Part shown: positions 8,631 through 31,272 of the stretch, in pieces | Position numbering within the stretch: position 1 is the stretch's first letter | Layout: each line of letters starts with the position of its first letter | From: Escherichia coli | GTDB lineage: Bacteria > Pseudomonadota > Gammaproteobacteria > Enterobacterales > Enterobacteriaceae | Reading direction: 5' to 3' (one strand) | NCBI RefSeq assembly: GCF_036507355.1 | Contig: NZ_AP027877.1 | Length of the DNA stretch: 64,000 nt | The notes under the pieces: generated by a model | Seen by the model: only the letters and a program-made list of their open reading frames with translations | Databases searched by the model: none | Told to the model about the DNA's origin: nothing | Position numbers and translations under genes: made by a program

Positions 8631-9704
<1,074 letters not shown>

Positions 9705-23765: not shown

Positions 23766-24638
23766 CTACTTACGGGTTCTCACCCCAGAGGTAAATGTCA
23801 GTCCAGTAAACCCCATCTCATCCTGCTTACATAACGCCCGTGCCAACAGAACAGGCGGCAGCCTGTGTTTGGGGGTACGGCGTTTTCCTGCCTCATCAGG
23901 ATAAGGTCTTACTTCCAGCCACATCCCCTTGAAGCAGTATGTTACCTGCTCGTCAAAATCCTTCAGCTTCTGGCTTTTCATCGGCCGACTGATTATCCCC
24001 GCTCTGGCCCGCATATTTTTATCCCTCTTCATCGCCTTTCTTAGCGTTTTGAGCGCCCCCGGCTCTCTCGGCATCAGTAGATGCAGGTGAGGCATCCAGC
24101 GCTGGATATCGGTGTGAAAATCCAACTCGTAGTCACCCACTATTTTGCCCGTAAATCCGGCTCTTTTTATCATCTTGTAGACCCGCTCCCGGAACTTCTT
24201 ATGATCCCAGCGGCTGATCTCGTCTTCTTTCAGCATGGCATCGTAATAAACCAGCGTAACCACTCTGTACGCGCCCTTAGAGGCCCTCAGTGGGAGCAAT
24301 TCAGTCAGCTTACGTAACCTGTGCAGGCGGAAACACTGTGGGCAGGCCGCGCTACCACATTGATGTTCTGGCATACAGCCCTCCAGTTTTCTCTTTAACC
24401 GAAACATCCGCCCTCGCCACTTTTTGTGTGCTTTTCTGACTTCTTTGCTCTCATCCTGATTATCATTCCTGTTCTGCCGCACAGCCTTTCGTATTGCTTT
24501 TATGCGGTACAGGCGTTCCTTCTCCATTTGCTCCCGGGTTTCAAAACCCGGAATGGTAAGAGCTAACTTTTCCAGTTGGCGCTCTTCTTCTGTCAGTGAT
24601 GCATACACTGCTCGCGCAATACGGTTTGTACCAAACAT
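23766..24638 (-). CDS. Hypothetical protein with Cys-rich zinc-finger-like motif, immediately downstream of alpA
   Basis: ORF 23766-24689; start placed at the ATG at 24638 adjacent to the alpA stop; contains CMPEHQCGSAACPQC; no confident family. Confidence 0.6.
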   Translation of the reverse strand: MFGTNRIARAVYASLTEEERQLEKLALTIPGFETREQMEKERLYRIKAIRKAVRQNRNDNQDESKEVRKAHKKWRGRMFRLKRKLEGCMPEHQCGSAACPQCFRLHRLRKLTELLPLRASKGAYRVVTLVYYDAMLKEDEISRWDHKKFRERVYKMIKRAGFTGKIVGDYELDFHTDIQRWMPHLHLLMPREPGALKTLRKAMKRDKNMRARAGIISRPMKSQKLKDFDEQVTYCFKGMWLEVRPYPDEAGKRRTPKHRLPPVLLARALCKQDEMGFTGLTFTSGVRTRK

Positions 24639-24639
24639 A

Positions 24640-24834
24640 TCAGCAACCTCCTCTGGTCCCACGGGAAGCAATCCACTCATTGACTTCACTTTCCAGCCAG
24701 GCCACCGCTCGTCCTCCTGTCAGGGATTTTTGGCGTGGGAAAGTCCCTTTTTCAATCATCCGGTACAGTGTGGCGCGGCTCACCGCACAGCGTTCCAGCA
24801 CAGCCTGAATTTTGACCAGTTTCATATCATTCAT
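24640..24834 (-). CDS. alpA: AlpA-family phage transcriptional regulator / excisionase-like protein
   Basis: 64-aa ORF with AlpA-type HTH (RCAVSRATLYRMIEKGTFP). Confidence 0.85.
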   Translation of the reverse strand: MNDMKLVKIQAVLERCAVSRATLYRMIEKGTFPRQKSLTGGRAVAWLESEVNEWIASRGTRGGC

Positions 24835-24941: not shown

Positions 24942-25547
24942 TTGTCGGGCCGACACTTTATGTCCATTGTCGGTCCGACAAAAGAGTCGTTAGAATGCTC
25001 AAAAATGAATGCATCAACGGGAGTTCGCGTGACAGGAAAAAGGCAGACCAGCCGCCAGAAACGGTCAGATAAAATGAGGAAAAATGCAGGATTGACTCAA
25101 GTGAAGGTTTACCTGGATGAAACCACTCTGCAGTTACTGGGGTTACTTCAGGAAAATATGTCAGAAGGTGATATGAAGGGTGATGAGGTCAATATGTTCC
25201 GTAGCATGGCTATAACGGCCAGTATCCACACCCTGGCAAAAGAACGACTGGGGGAACAAGAAGTATCGCATATGGTGATCAAGAACCTCGGTGCTGACTG
25301 CCCATCCGACGAAGCGACAGAAAACCCACGTAAGTTTCTTCTCCGGACGATGATTAACCACCTGTATGATAATGGCACACACAATCCGCACCGCCGTCGA
25401 TTGTCAGAAGTGGCTGGAATTATGAATGAAAGCAGTTTCAGGAACCCGAAGAACAAAAAAGGGGGATGGAGTGAAAATGATATCAGTCACTATGTCAGCA
25501 ATGACATAAAACTGGAAAATGATACCTCGGTTGATGTACCGGGCTAA
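24942..25547 (+). CDS. Hypothetical protein, divergent from alpA
   Basis: 201-aa ORF; true start uncertain; no recognisable motif. Confidence 0.45.
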   Translation: MSGRHFMSIVGPTKESLECSKMNASTGVRVTGKRQTSRQKRSDKMRKNAGLTQVKVYLDETTLQLLGLLQENMSEGDMKGDEVNMFRSMAITASIHTLAKERLGEQEVSHMVIKNLGADCPSDEATENPRKFLLRTMINHLYDNGTHNPHRRRLSEVAGIMNESSFRNPKNKKGGWSENDISHYVSNDIKLENDTSVDVPG

Positions 25548-25760
25548 GCAAATCTATACACCAATATATTTATCTCTGGAATACCCTGGTCGGGGAGCAC
25601 GAATTAGTTATTCATCAGGGGTGGTGAGTTGGTCGTGCTTTCCCGGAAGGCAGGTGCGCCAACGCCAGTACTTGGTATACCTGTGGGCTATCAAAAATAG
25701 TCTCTGGCCCCGTTTGATGGTTTTAACCAACAGGCTGCGGTGGTCATCCCCCATGAAAGC

Positions 25761-26708
25761 TTACCAGCAACATAGCGCCCTGGAGGCTCTGTCTACAGCC
25801 TGCCTGCCCCTACAGTCATAGCGTGTGGTCGTGGATATATCCGCATGTCCTGCCAACTGGCGCACCACATTAATGTCCACTCCCTGCTCCAGCAGGCGGG
25901 TGATGAATGTCCGTCGCAGGTCGTGGGGGGTGAAGTAATCCACTTCTGCAGCTTCGCGTAACTGCGCCAACAGCCCTGTAAGACCCGTGGTGGTAAGCCG
26001 TTGTCGTCCTGGCTGCCCCGCACGACTGATGCGACTGAACAGCGGCCCGGCATGATACCCCCGGAGCTTCAGCCATCGCCGCAGTTGCATGCAGACTTTT
26101 CCGGAAAGGTGGATTTCCCGGATTTTGCGCCCCTTTCCCTGCCTGACAATCACGATCCCCGTGGCTACATCTATATCTCCCACGTCCAGGGCTACCAGTT
26201 CGGCGGCACGCAGACCTGCGCCACACAGAAGCAGCAAAATAGCCCGATTACGCTGGCAACGTACAGCGTCAGCCTTTCCGGCCGCCGCCAGCATGGCCCG
26301 AATTTCGGTCCTGTCCAACGCCCTGCCCAAGCGGGTGGCACTGCCAGTGACACGCCTGACTGAACGTATGCGCGTCAGTCTGTCAGCATCCAGAATCCCC
26401 ATACTGAAAGCCGCTCCGGCAACCGATTTCAGCGCCGACAGCGCCATGTTCACCGTGGCAACAGCATAGCCCTCATCCAGCAGCACCGAGCGTACCCGCA
26501 TCACGCTCGTGTAGTCCAACGTATGCCAGGGGTAGGTGTCGGGCTTCGCCCCCGGACGGAGGATACCGGCACATCGTCGGAGTAAGCTTTGCATCCCCCT
26601 GCGCCCGGCTGGCGTCAGGCTTGCCAGCCACAGCAATGCTGGGTTGATGGAGAGGGCATTTTGCGGGTGGACAGATGCCGCGCGTTTACCATTGCGGCTC
26701 GTGGTCAT
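25761..26708 (-). CDS. Tyrosine-type site-specific recombinase (XerC/XerD-like, about 315 aa)
   Basis: Catalytic-box residues (R in LRAAEL, HDLRRTF, ISTTTRY); visibly GC-rich relative to neighbours. Confidence 0.8.
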   Translation of the reverse strand: MTTSRNGKRAASVHPQNALSINPALLWLASLTPAGRRGMQSLLRRCAGILRPGAKPDTYPWHTLDYTSVMRVRSVLLDEGYAVATVNMALSALKSVAGAAFSMGILDADRLTRIRSVRRVTGSATRLGRALDRTEIRAMLAAAGKADAVRCQRNRAILLLLCGAGLRAAELVALDVGDIDVATGIVIVRQGKGRKIREIHLSGKVCMQLRRWLKLRGYHAGPLFSRISRAGQPGRQRLTTTGLTGLLAQLREAAEVDYFTPHDLRRTFITRLLEQGVDINVVRQLAGHADISTTTRYDCRGRQAVDRASRALCCW

Positions 26709-26784
26709 AATATCATCCTTATTATTGATAGTGGGATATCCCGGTCAGGTCTGACCGGGAGTGAGGGTTAATATGTCTTCGTAG

Positions 26785-27405
26785 TCAGCGTTTTTTCACA
26801 CCATAATGCTGAAGGTAGCGATTCAGGCTCCGACCAGCGCCAGTCTCAAAATTCCATGTCCGCCAGATAAGCTGCCCCACTGTGTCGCGTATCACCAACC
26901 GGAAGTGGGTATGCAGGTCATCCTCAATGGCGACATTTTTATACGTCGCAACCACAGCCTCTGCTTCCAAACGAGTAAACGAATCTGGGGGCAGTTGTGG
27001 CGTCTGTATTGTGGGCTCTGGTGCTGCGCGGTCAGGACGTGAATGCCGTCCCTGTGTGATGTGACTGACGGCTTGGTAACTGCTCTGCCTCAGAAGTCCG
27101 GTGGTCTTCCTTGCCCGGAGAATATCAATGGAGGTAATGTGCGGAGACTGGGGGATAAAGCTGACATTACCCTGGTCTGTACGTACCAGGTCGTACTTTT
27201 CAACAATAGAATTCAGGGCCTCCGTCAGTGATATCTCTGCATCAATGTATGCCTGAATGGCACCTTTCCCGCTAAACGGCGTGTCGCTGAGAGTGAGTCC
27301 GTAGTGCTTCTCCAGCAAGTAAGCCAGCAGAGTGTGCCAGACATCAGCAGGGGACAGGCAACACGATAGTGTCCGATTTGGTGAGACCGGTTGTTTTTTC
27401 ATCAC
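26785..27405 (-). CDS. CbtA/YpjF/YkfI-family toxin (type IV TA), C-terminally extended
   Basis: N-terminal ~120 aa match the CbtA family ([11 protein letters not shown] ... [13 protein letters not shown]); about 80 extra C-terminal residues. Confidence 0.75.
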
Positions 27406-27511
27406 TGTATTCTCGCGGATAACATTGAAAAAGACGCGCGAACGTGAACATCAATTGAACGTCCGCACTTATTGGAATCCGTCGGCCAGACGGGCAAAAA
27501 GTGACTTCCAT

Positions 27512-27871
27512 CTACTGTCCCGAAGACCGGGAAGCCATGGGATAAATGGCGATATATACGTAGCCACAGGAGCCGAGCGTGTTAGCCTCGCAGATCAGCC
27601 CTTCTACCTGTAGCGTGATCCCCTTCGCCCTGCGCGGGTCCAGTTCACCGGACAGCAGAATGCTTTCCATCTGCCTCATGAGCAGCGGAAATATCTGGTC
27701 CAGATGGCGTGCGTCTCTGTCGCTGAACGTACCGGTGAATTCAGCCCGGTCAGCCAGAAAATGCAGGCAGCCGCCCTCCTGCACCAGACGCGCCCCGAAG
27801 CATGGCGTCACGTTGCACTGTAGCCCCCACAGATCTGTGGGTGGCGTATCGTAGTCTTTCAGATCTGTCAT
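27512..27871 (-). CDS. CbeA/YfjZ/YafW-family antitoxin
   Basis: WGLQCNVTPCFGARLVQEG motif; ATG at 27871 preceded by a GAGGA ribosome-binding site. Confidence 0.8.
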   Translation of the reverse strand: MTDLKDYDTPPTDLWGLQCNVTPCFGARLVQEGGCLHFLADRAEFTGTFSDRDARHLDQIFPLLMRQMESILLSGELDPRRAKGITLQVEGLICEANTLGSCGYVYIAIYPMASRSSGQ

Positions 27872-27931
27872 GTCAGGTGTCCTCAAAAGTCGCACTGCCA
27901 GTGCATCAATCTGGCAATGCTGGGTAGTTCT

Positions 27932-28369
27932 TCAGCTTTCCCACAGCACGCGCGTGGTGTAGACCCCGCTGGCGTAGTAGCTCAGGAAGTTACGCTCCCA
28001 CAGGCTGTAAAGCGCCCTTACTTCCGTTAGAGGCAAATCCCCCGTACAGTAGTGCCAGACATAGCCCTGCGACCAACTGATATCGATGATTTTCTCCAGC
28101 TCCGGGTAGACCGTGCCGACATAGCCAAAATCGGTGGCGTAGTCCAGGCACCACTCATCGCCCTGATGAATTAGCCGGATCTCCACCGGGTGATAACCCC
28201 CCCGCTCCACACTGTAGTCCGGGTCCCGGAAGTTGAATGTCACGGCGGTGATCCGATGTTTATGGGCGGGTATTTCGCCCGCCTCTGCCATCAGCAGTTC
28301 GTACAGTTGCAGACTGACAGGCAGCATAAAGCCTGCCGGCTGAATAACGGCATTGATGTTCAAGAGCAA
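27932..28369 (-). CDS. Hypothetical protein between the RadC-like and antitoxin genes
   Basis: 145-aa ORF in the position occupied by small DUF proteins in CP4-type cryptic prophages; no motif recognised. Confidence 0.55.
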   Translation of the reverse strand: MLLNINAVIQPAGFMLPVSLQLYELLMAEAGEIPAHKHRITAVTFNFRDPDYSVERGGYHPVEIRLIHQGDEWCLDYATDFGYVGTVYPELEKIIDISWSQGYVWHYCTGDLPLTEVRALYSLWERNFLSYYASGVYTTRVLWES

Positions 28370-28454
28370 AACCTCAGTGTTTACAGTTTAAAAAAACGTG
28401 AAGGGATAAAGCGGACGTGTCTTAGCGTGGATAATGTGTATTAAACCAGGTAAC

Positions 28455-28943
28455 TCACAGTAGCCCGTGTTCAGCGAAAGACCAGGCTTTGTCGCCTCCC
28501 ACAATGAGATGGTCGGTCACGCGGATATCCAGCAACGCCAGTGCGTCTGTAATTTTTTGGGTAATGAGTTTATCGGCCTGGCTCGGTTCAGGCTCACCAC
28601 TGGGATGGTTATGCACCAGTATCACAGCAGCAGCGTTGTGCGTCAGTGCCAAGCTGACTATTTCGCGGGGATAAACCATCGTCTGGCTCAGCGTACCGAT
28701 AAACAATGTCTGGTAGCCGAGAATATGATGTTGCTGTGAAAGCATTATCACACCAAAAGATTCACGGTTTTCAAGCGCCAGCTTCATCACCAGCCACTGA
28801 CGTACATCTTCAGATGAGGTGATTTTTCGGCGATTGCGAAACTGGCGGGTCAGCAATGAATGGGCAAACCGGATAATCTGTTCGCGGGTAACCGGCTCCA
28901 GCGTCTGATAATGACCGCTACGATCACTTGCGATAAACGTCAT
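28455..28943 (-). CDS. RadC-like JAB-domain protein (YeeS/YfjY/YkfG family)
   Basis: JAMM-like motif HNHPSGEPEPS; start at the ATG at 28943 with GGAG ribosome-binding site. Confidence 0.85.
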   Translation of the reverse strand: MTFIASDRSGHYQTLEPVTREQIIRFAHSLLTRQFRNRRKITSSEDVRQWLVMKLALENRESFGVIMLSQQHHILGYQTLFIGTLSQTMVYPREIVSLALTHNAAAVILVHNHPSGEPEPSQADKLITQKITDALALLDIRVTDHLIVGGDKAWSFAEHGLL

Positions 28944-28965
28944 GATGTACTCCTTACCTTTTAGT

Positions 28966-29589
28966 TCAGAATTCACGTTCAACAAAGTAAATGGCATCCG
29001 GCAGCAACGTATGGCGCTTCAGCTCAGGTTGTACTGAAAACGTGTCCTTTCGCTGGCTGCGTATCCCCAGGCTATCAAACAAAAACAACCGGGTAGCATC
29101 GGTACGAACCACCACTGACCAGTGCCATGTGGTCCCCATAATCACCACGCGCTGCGCCTGATTCTCCGGTGAAGCCAGCCAGTCGCTGATATCATGAAAT
29201 ATTCGGTGAGTTCTCAAGGTTCGATAACGGAAGGGAGTATGAAAATAGAGGGGATAATGTTGGGCGTAATGCCCTCTCAGCAGAACATCTGCTATCAGGT
29301 GGTCCATCTGCTCTTCATCCAGGCCAAGCGTCAGGAGATCAAATAAGTCCCATCGTCGCTTATAGCTGCTTAGCAGGCGGTACATTAATTTTTCCCGCCT
29401 TACCCTGCCGTCATAGAGGTAACTCAGGGTATTAATCAGGCTGTAGATGCCACACAAATAGTCATGCTGTCCCTGGCGGGACGCATGAACGTCTCGAGGA
29501 AGTGTCATTGTAAATTTCCGGGATAAGTGATGGCTGTGAACCAGCCGGAATGGTGGTGATACAGTGGCTGAGCGCATGATGGCAGCCAC
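28966..29589 (-). CDS. Hypothetical protein
   Basis: 207-aa ORF in the same operon-like array; start uncertain. Confidence 0.5.
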   Translation of the reverse strand: MAAIMRSATVSPPFRLVHSHHLSRKFTMTLPRDVHASRQGQHDYLCGIYSLINTLSYLYDGRVRREKLMYRLLSSYKRRWDLFDLLTLGLDEEQMDHLIADVLLRGHYAQHYPLYFHTPFRYRTLRTHRIFHDISDWLASPENQAQRVVIMGTTWHWSVVVRTDATRLFLFDSLGIRSQRKDTFSVQPELKRHTLLPDAIYFVEREF

Positions 29590-29665
29590 TGTATAAATTA
29601 TAACAAAATCAATACATTAATGCAAGTGATTCTTGTTATCACTTATCCAGCGACTCCTTCACTTG

Positions 29666-30046
29666 TTACTGGTTAACGTCTCCTTCAGACAGGTCCCTTG
29701 CAACCTGAGCCAGAGCCTGCTGCAAAAGTTTATCCCTAGAGGCCGGTTTCATGGTACGGAACAACTGTATCCACAGGTTAAGCTGCTCGTCTGCTGAAGT
29801 ATCTGCCGCATCCCGCTCACTTTTCAACGCCATCCCTGCCGCGCTGATATGGTACAGAAACCCCTTCCCACTGGTGCGTTTGCGGCGGATTTCCGGATGT
29901 AGGGCTGTGAGCTTTTCCAGACGTAGCCGCGCCCATTTCGCTGTGCCCGGCATTCCTTCCATTCCGGCAAACTGCTCTGCTGTAAGCCACTCCCCACTGT
30001 CCGTCATTCCGGCATCACAGGGCTCAGTCATCTGTTCACTGCTCAT
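29666..30046 (-). CDS. Hypothetical protein, possibly DNA-binding
   Basis: 126-aa ORF; IS5 inserted about 30 bp upstream of its start codon. Confidence 0.5.
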   Translation of the reverse strand: MSSEQMTEPCDAGMTDSGEWLTAEQFAGMEGMPGTAKWARLRLEKLTALHPEIRRKRTSGKGFLYHISAAGMALKSERDAADTSADEQLNLWIQLFRTMKPASRDKLLQQALAQVARDLSEGDVNQ

Positions 30047-30078
30047 AAAATTTCACCTCTTATCAAAGCGTTAGTTAA

Positions 30079-31272
<1,194 letters not shown>

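Follow-up and report, generated by a model that had tools for sequence, protein, structure and literature searches.

A CbtA-type toxin with a C-terminal DUF905 domain in an integrative-element backbone of Escherichia coli

The toxins of the toxin-antitoxin (TA) modules found in the CP4 cryptic prophages of Escherichia coli are small proteins of 113-124 amino acids (aa) that lack a DUF905 domain. The locus described here raises the question of why a related toxin gene should run on to 205 aa, and whether the additional sequence belongs to the toxin at all. The gene lies on the minus strand at 26785-27402 of a 64-kb stretch of E. coli DNA (64,000 nucleotides (nt) of contig NZ_AP027877.1, assembly GCF_036507355.1), hereafter called the window, to which all coordinates refer. 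A preliminary description of the locus had placed the toxin about 80 aa above canonical CbtA, and alignment with K-12 CbtA gives 81 aa (205 versus 124 aa). Our results show that the 205-aa toxin is a genuine CbtA-DUF905 fusion maintained by evolution. As a fuller explanation, it is probable that the locus is a variant CP4-type module in the backbone of an integrative element, in which the extended toxin is a single maintained CbtA-linker-DUF905 polypeptide and the pair is still a type IV TA system. The toxin gene and its parts, which like all open reading frames (ORFs) of the module are on the minus strand, are as follows.

26785-27402, minus strand: toxin gene, one ORF of 205 aa (CbtA domain, linker and DUF905 domain)
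27049-27402, minus strand: CbtA-toxin domain, aa 1-118 (PF06755, E=1.6e-38; residues 2-113, profile positions 1-112 of 112)
26995-27048, minus strand: proline-rich linker, aa 119-136, about 18 aa
26785-26994, minus strand: DUF905/UPF0401 (YkfF-type) domain, aa 137-205, and the stop codon

The N-terminal part is 50% identical to residues 1-120 of the 124 residues of K-12 CbtA (tblastn), and the CbtA-family alignment is free of gaps through column 100. As the alignment extends to residue 120 of 124, the toxin domain is near-complete and not truncated. The ORF finder starts the gene at a GTG at 27405, one codon ahead of the ATG, but homologues begin with MKKQPVSP and the GTG is therefore probably not used. 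The C-terminal part matches the DUF905 family over its full length (PF06006, E=5.6e-29, profile positions 2-70 of 70) and is 54% identical to residues 3-73 of the 79 residues of K-12 YkfF. It also matches by sequence, at 4.1e-23, the YkfF structure PDB 2HJJ, which is the sole solved member of the family. DUF905 is thus found here as the C-terminal part of a toxin and not as a free-standing protein of about 70-80 aa, whereas in CP4-6 YkfF is a free-standing gene in the same cluster as the TA pair. No free-standing DUF905 gene was found in the module by tblastn over the 64 kb, since the domain is now on the toxin. An AlphaFold2 (AF2) model of the toxin, built on an alignment of 87 sequences, gave a predicted local distance difference test (pLDDT) score of 84-92 for the core of the helical CbtA domain and of 81-90 for the DUF905 domain, modeled as alpha-beta3-alpha, with linker residues 120-133 below 50. 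The toxin is accordingly predicted to consist of two independently folding domains joined by a disordered linker.

The fused gene occurs well beyond the window. A word-indexed search of 5.8 billion proteins recovered homologues in which both Pfam domains are fused; they are 192-210 aa long, and their identities are 97%, 63-67% and 56%. Three lineages can be distinguished, i.e., that of the window, that of islands adjacent to mutS in Salmonella and E. coli, and that of a short contig (L006). The linker varies among them in sequence and length, and is in frame and stop-free in the full-length copies of all three. When lineages of the fused toxin are compared, the CbtA part has a ratio of nonsynonymous to synonymous divergence (dN/dS, Nei-Gojobori) of 0.19-0.36 and the DUF905 part one of 0.04-0.14; dS itself ranges from 0.8 to >2 and is thus near saturation. 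The linker shows a pN of about 0.5 between lineages, with a different length in one of them, and the frame is kept. Both domains are therefore under purifying selection while the linker drifts. No in-frame start codon ahead of the DUF905 domain is common to the three lineages, and the linkers of the window and of L006 contain no in-frame ATG, GTG or TTG. Among 5426 complete E. coli genomes the full fused gene is present in 37, and some CbtA-like gene in 3086. The preliminary description had foreseen that the extension might be an ORF-calling artefact, with a stop codon missing through sequencing error. The same open frame in these 37 genomes and in distant lineages at 56-67% identity, together with the dN/dS values, excludes this scenario.

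Neighbour-joining (NJ) trees, made for each domain, group the fused proteins in a clade without any sampled free-standing sequence, and this fits a single old fusion. The fused DUF905 clade reads IEDDQHTHFRL, compared with IEDDQGSHFRL elsewhere. When 1.84 billion cluster representatives were searched with HMMER, 251 relatives were found, and both domains were spanned only by representatives of the fused clade, which means that the architecture is rare.

A few further copies in the databases differ in ways that deserve separate description. The 187-aa protein P0121 (50% identity) was considered as a fourth fused lineage, but its contig is full of frameshifts and it is an error-ridden copy of the mutS-island lineage; it was not counted. 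In P0018 (207 aa; Logan contig), which happens to represent the fused clade in 50%-identity clustering, a deletion joins the toxin at the end of the linker in frame to the last approximately 70 residues of the recombinase, and DUF905 is removed. The Salmonella allele (P0008; L003 8615-8633, CP074306.1) is 210 aa long compared with 205 aa, as a one-base change in the length of an A-run at the stop codon has shifted the frame and added MTTQG. DUF905 is also fused elsewhere, namely C-terminal to an unknown domain of about 95 aa in P0204 and N-terminal to extensions of about 90-100 aa in P0197, P0229 and P0256. Being joined to other unknown regions as well, DUF905 behaves as a mobile domain.

The toxin gene is part of a block in which RadC, DUF2787, the CbeA antitoxin, the 205-aa toxin and then a tyrosine recombinase follow each other on the minus strand. 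The other members are the following.

28455-28943, minus strand: RadC-like JAB protein, 162 aa (PF04002, E=4.9e-43; TIGR00608, 145.9 bits, cut-off 133.85); first recognisable member of the CP4-type block, 55% identical to K-12 YeeS (tblastn), start in agreement with RefSeq
27932-28363, minus strand: DUF2787 protein, 143 aa, TTG start (PF10980, E=4e-34; phrog_13741, E=9.7e-41)
27512-27871, minus strand: CbeA/YeeU-family type IV antitoxin, 119 aa (PF06154, E=1.9e-45)
26709-26784, minus strand: spacer between toxin and recombinase, with a GC-rich hairpin (CCCGGTCAG-AC-CTGACCGGG) at 26730-26760 and an AAGGA ribosome-binding site
25761-26708, minus strand: tyrosine recombinase, 315 aa (PF00589, E=2.4e-32)

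The antitoxin is 66% identical to residues 20-116 of K-12 CbeA (tblastn). It is encoded directly upstream of the toxin on the same strand, with a gap of 109 nt to the toxin start, and has a dN/dS of 0.27 against the lineage of the mutS-adjacent islands. In every full island, CbeA is intact and adjacent to the toxin. Tblastn with K-12 proteins placed all CbtA, CbeA, RadC and DUF905 homologues of the 64 kb within the module. NCBIfam lacks models of the toxin, the antitoxin and DUF2787, and PADLOC gave no match to the module proteins except a sub-threshold JAB match. A promoter and terminator scan of 25500-30400 returned counts not above those of shuffled sequence.

The gene order RadC, small protein, CbeA-like and CbtA-like, as given in the preliminary description, was recovered in full and each of these ORFs has Pfam support, at E-values well outside the range of chance matches. 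The description had further held that the module mirrors those of CP4-44, CP4-57 and CP4-6, and this is true only in part. As in the CP4 pairs CbtA/CbeA, YkfI/YafW and YpjF/YfjZ, a PF06154 antitoxin is found immediately upstream of a PF06755 toxin on the same strand, and as in the CP4 modules a RadC-like JAB gene lies two genes upstream in an integrated mobile element; the order is that of CP4-44 and CP4-6. However, the small protein is not DUF987. Where CP4 islands have DUF987 (YeeT/YkfH; 73 aa) between RadC and the antitoxin, the slot is occupied here by DUF2787 (143 aa), which is counted among the core genes of gammaproteobacterial pipolins (PMC11551731), and DUF987 (YeeT) had no tblastn match in the window. 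CP4 islands also carry antirestriction (YafX/YfjX) and DUF932 genes upstream, and CP4-44 has yeeW downstream, while the window has none of these; YafX, the DUF932 protein YafZ and YeeW gave no tblastn match in the 64 kb. Finally, the tyrosine recombinase after the toxin is a feature of this locus and not of the CP4 modules. We found no paper that mentions CbtA along with DUF2787, and the CbtA-DUF905 fusion is undescribed in the searchable literature.

The sequence of the toxin domain bears on its likely target. CbtA, YpjF and YkfI bind FtsZ and MreB and thereby block division and elongation (PMC5624674). In all three, the substitution F65S removes FtsZ binding, and the F65S variants are still toxic via the elongation block (PMC5624674). 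CbtA with R15C/F65S is non-toxic (PMC5624674). Whereas the CP4 toxins have F65, the window toxin has S65, together with the C15 that is native in YpjF and YkfI. The replacement is general in the clade, as F65 is found in 0 of 16 fused-clade sequences, which have A, T, S or D instead, compared with 96 of the 105 other search hits. Moreover, five of the nine non-F65 exceptions outside the fused set are truncated copies from the fused clade. With F65 replaced, it is likely that FtsZ is no longer a target of the toxin via the known surface. A C-terminal appendage as such is tolerated by toxins of this family, since His6-toxin-GFP fusions stay toxic (PMC5624674).

The explanation that we consider probable would connect these observations as follows. 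One ancestral fusion would have given rise to the present fused toxins, which have since diverged to 56-67% identity. The pair would still work as a type IV TA system in which the toxin domain binds a cytoskeletal target. Without F65, this target would be MreB or another partner. CbeA is known to act on the targets and not on the toxin (PMC5624674), and the CbeA of the module would likewise counteract the toxin at target level. Through the tethered DUF905 domain, the protein would gain a targeting or regulatory function or a second effector activity, exerted when and where the toxin acts, and the TA pair may help the element to persist or to establish itself.

Several observations weigh against this explanation. 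The NJ trees were made without bootstrap, and the margin in identity is narrow in the case of the CbtA domain. The literature that mentions DUF905 gives no function for it. RefSeq, through the Prokaryotic Genome Annotation Pipeline (PGAP), divides the toxin ORF into a CbtA pseudogene (27040-27402) and a 56-aa DUF905 CDS (26785-26955). The toxin copy of the window may in addition be attenuated. Over the 3.9-kb module, the window differs from the majority E. coli allele (L010, L011) at 14 positions; seven of these are in the toxin, and five of the seven are nonsynonymous (G56E, A80V, G107S, N155K and Q163L). It is these changes that raise the possibility of attenuation, as G56E hits a near-invariant glycine and Q163L hits the IEDDQ motif. 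The RadC, DUF2787 and 180-aa genes are identical between the two alleles, and the clustering of differences in the toxin suggests relaxed or altered selection on the toxin in this lineage, the island of which is riddled with insertion sequences (IS). Lastly, the fused toxin that has diverged furthest (P0015, 193 aa, with a short linker), encoded on the short contig L006 (1-1038), is found 6 nt after a truncated DUF932 gene and beside an AraC-type host gene, and no CbeA, RadC or recombinase is present near it on the contig. The locus looks like an island remnant with an orphan intact toxin, and an intact fusion without an adjacent antitoxin is a reason to suspect that the fusion is not highly toxic.

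In the alternative that survives best, the fusion is genuine and its CbtA domain has ceased to be toxic. The domain might then be a cytoskeleton-binding or localisation module, or an inert carrier for DUF905, with CbeA kept for a function of its own and the protein acting as an establishment or anti-defence factor of the element. The lack of F65 in all fused copies is in line with this, given that loss of both FtsZ and MreB binding abolishes CbtA toxicity (PMC5624674), and so is the orphan copy of L006. In the leading regions of plasmids, furthermore, DUF905 genes have as neighbours psiB and psiA, two genes of early establishment (PMC12826799). Nevertheless, we regard a non-toxic CbtA domain as unlikely. 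The F65S forms of CbtA, YpjF and YkfI remain toxic through the elongation block (PMC5624674), the CbtA domain is under purifying selection, and CbeA is in every full island not only intact and adjacent but also equally diverged (66% aa identity each).

Another possibility, which we put forward only tentatively, is that the fusion serves as a "Rosetta stone" and identifies DUF905/YkfF proteins as functional partners of CbtA-type toxins, with the domain retargeting or gating the toxin. On this account, the toxin would have lost its FtsZ-binding residue when DUF905 was gained, and might be directed, e.g., to another cellular or incoming-DNA-associated partner during establishment or phage attack. 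If true, the module would be a differently wired effector and not a simple addiction system.

The reading implied by the RefSeq annotation is that a decayed CbtA pseudogene runs by accident into a DUF905 gene with its own internal GTG start. The pseudogene is labeled [quoted passage not shown], and the same split is present in every E. coli and Salmonella record inspected, i.e., E. coli ET729 (100% identical to the window over the 3.9 kb compared), E. coli SCU-484 and the Salmonella plasmid pIndS104-CTX. An in-frame GTG is indeed found at codon 150 of the window gene with GAGG ahead of it, a similar one exists in the mutS-island lineage, and frameshifted and truncated copies occur in the databases (P0016, P0017, P0019). 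However, essentially nothing is lost from the CbtA part, which aligns to residue 120 of 124, and the PGAP start at the internal GTG cuts off 13 conserved DUF905 residues that both YkfF and the Pfam model contain. The codon-150 GTG is also missing from the L006 lineage. In three lineages whose synonymous divergence is saturated, the fast-evolving linker has kept an open frame, and an accidental read-through is not expected to survive at dS >1. An accidental read-through is thus very improbable, and the annotation amounts to a systematic RefSeq error, in which a conserved 205-aa gene is shown as a pseudogene and a truncated CDS, that is corrected here.

The protein could also be a mini polyprotein whose linker is cleaved, perhaps by the RadC JAB protein or the 180-aa protein encoded just upstream of RadC, to give toxin and DUF905 in a 1:1 ratio. 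The CbtA/YeeV domain is listed as a component of the multidomain "polyvalent" proteins that conjugative elements encode (Iyer, Burroughs, Anand, de Souza, Aravind 2017, PMC5512222), and such proteins, those with CbtA domains among them, are proposed to be processed into separate units (PMC5512222). They combine several effector domains of host-element conflict; the toxin, too, is a multidomain polypeptide of a mobile element, in which DUF905 would have to count as an effector domain. Its linker is disordered in the AF2 model, and RadC and the 180-aa protein, both encoded a short way upstream, are candidate hydrolases. Unlike the polyvalent proteins, however, the toxin has two domains in 205 aa and a dedicated antitoxin; DUF905 was not found in the text of PMC5512222, and no conjugation genes were seen in the stretch examined around the module. 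The linker has no conserved cleavage motif, it has been argued that JAB domains of the RadC type are no peptidases (PMC5512222), and the peptidase reading of the 180-aa protein comes from a motif, its structural model having failed. We therefore give cleavage of the linker little chance of being correct. Least of all can the extension be a fusion with a downstream yeeW-like gene, as the preliminary description had considered possible and as is easy to imagine from CP4-44, where yeeW follows cbtA and overlaps its end, because YeeW has neither a BLASTP alignment to the 205-aa protein at E<=100 nor a tblastn match in the window, and DUF905/YkfF accounts for the whole extension.

The probable explanation of a maintained CbtA-linker-DUF905 toxin in a type IV TA pair places the module in an integrative-element backbone, and the surrounding genes give this backbone its outline. 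The recombinase gene begins 76 nt past the toxin stop. As described previously, it is GC-rich and XerC-like, with a GC content of 60.7% compared with 47.4% in the window and 50-58% in neighbouring genes, and its catalytic R-K-H-R-H-Y residues are intact, all six aligning with those of XerD and Pyrococcus XerA. It reaches only 123.5 bits against the XerC equivalog TIGR02224 (cut-off 335.15), and is also far from the XerD cut-off; the protein is therefore an island-borne Xer-like recombinase and not chromosomal XerC. Its position after the toxin is kept in all full islands, and is the same in L002-L005. Possible roles are multimer resolution of the excised circle or a second integration function. 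The hairpin in the spacer before the recombinase gene is found at the same place in L003 and L005 (about 8660-8690) with another stem (CCCGGCC/GGCCGGG versus CCCGGTCAG/CTGACCGGG), and the sequence GGGATAYYCCA comes after it in both island lineages. A weak promoter-like match for the recombinase overlaps the hairpin, which was not called as a terminator in the scan of 25500-30400.

The remaining genes of the backbone that flank the module are the following.

29666-30046, minus strand: conserved protein of 126 aa at the head of the block (phrog_310, E=2e-7; phrog_7148, E=2.3e-5)
28966-29508, minus strand: conserved protein of 180 aa, 22 nt upstream of RadC, with highly conserved Cys (LCGIYSL), His (TWHWS) and Asp residues
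24942/24960-25547, plus strand: hypothetical protein of 195-201 aa, a backbone gene beyond the recombinase
24640-24834, minus strand: AlpA (PF05930, E=3e-16)
23766-24638, minus strand: protein of about 290 aa next to AlpA, with CxxxxCxxC (CGSAACPQC) and HLHLL (WMPHLHLLM) motifs

The 126-aa protein is weakly similar to the helix-turn-helix (HTH) N-termini of transposases and repressors, and its position is kept in L002 and L005. For the 180-aa protein, no family match was found in Pfam (even at E<=5), NCBIfam, PADLOC or PHROG. It has a dN/dS of 0.06, and the only 16 homologues recovered include one from Aeromonas veronii; its AF2 model, with a pLDDT of 43, is too poor for a fold search. From the motif alone, its Cys, His and Asp residues are arranged like those of a papain-type Cys-His-Asp peptidase. 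AlpA and the approximately 290-aa protein keep their positions in L002-L005, and both are also present, together with the 195-aa protein, in L010 and L011. The approximately 290-aa protein had no significant match in the family libraries searched. Its WMPHLHLLM resembles the HUH motif of rolling-circle endonucleases, and it is a candidate HUH protein as judged by this motif.

The same gene string, i.e., 126-aa protein, 180-aa protein, RadC, DUF2787, CbeA, CbtA-DUF905, 315-aa recombinase, hypothetical protein, AlpA and approximately 290-aa protein, is found in the mutS-adjacent islands of Salmonella and E. coli. Between the window and these islands, every gene of the string has a protein identity of 66-94% and a dN/dS of 0.06-0.27, with toxin and antitoxin being the most diverged. 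Purifying selection thus acts on all genes of the module. The island of the window extends from about 18300 to 42100 between ychF and ycgV, with a P4-type integrase at both ends, and is riddled with copies of IS1, IS100, IS3 and ISKpn26. One of these, an ISKpn26 (IS5-like) copy at 30147-31126 on the plus strand, is inserted in a divergent control region directly upstream of the 126-aa gene, and the HTH regulator on the opposite side of this control region is now frameshifted. In relatives, the element has defence genes as cargo. E. coli SCU-484 has RADAR rdrB together with a P-loop NTPase, and the mutS islands encode a YobI-ATPase protein of 1318 aa as well as a reverse transcriptase. The corresponding positions in the window are taken by IS elements or other genes. 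The module thus belongs to the genes conserved as the backbone of this integrative element, which in relatives is loaded with defence genes.

This agrees with a recent report on integrative elements with defence systems, which encode integrases, excisionases, HUH endonucleases and "moron" modules with RadC/ArdB and CbtA/CbeA (PMC12458937, 2025 preprint, bioRxiv 10.1101/2025.09.15.676423). The island described here shares with them an integrase, an AlpA-type excisionase, a candidate HUH protein and a block of small genes with RadC and CbtA/CbeA. It differs in having an extra internal XerC-like recombinase and no ArdB, and a fused toxin is not described for those elements. Furthermore, they are found in tRNA genes, whereas the window island and its relatives are next to ychF/ycgV or mutS.

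Collectively, these results are a refinement at specialist level and do not overturn current understanding. They describe which backbone genes are conserved in an integrative element with RADAR and other defence systems as its cargo. They also provide a first contextual handle on DUF905/YkfF, a family whose structure has been solved since 2006 and which is common in CP4 islands and in plasmid leading regions, as the maintained fusion of DUF905 to a cytoskeleton-binding toxin predicts that the two act jointly. Finally, a natural CbtA clade without F65 is a test case for how target specificity evolves in type IV toxins.

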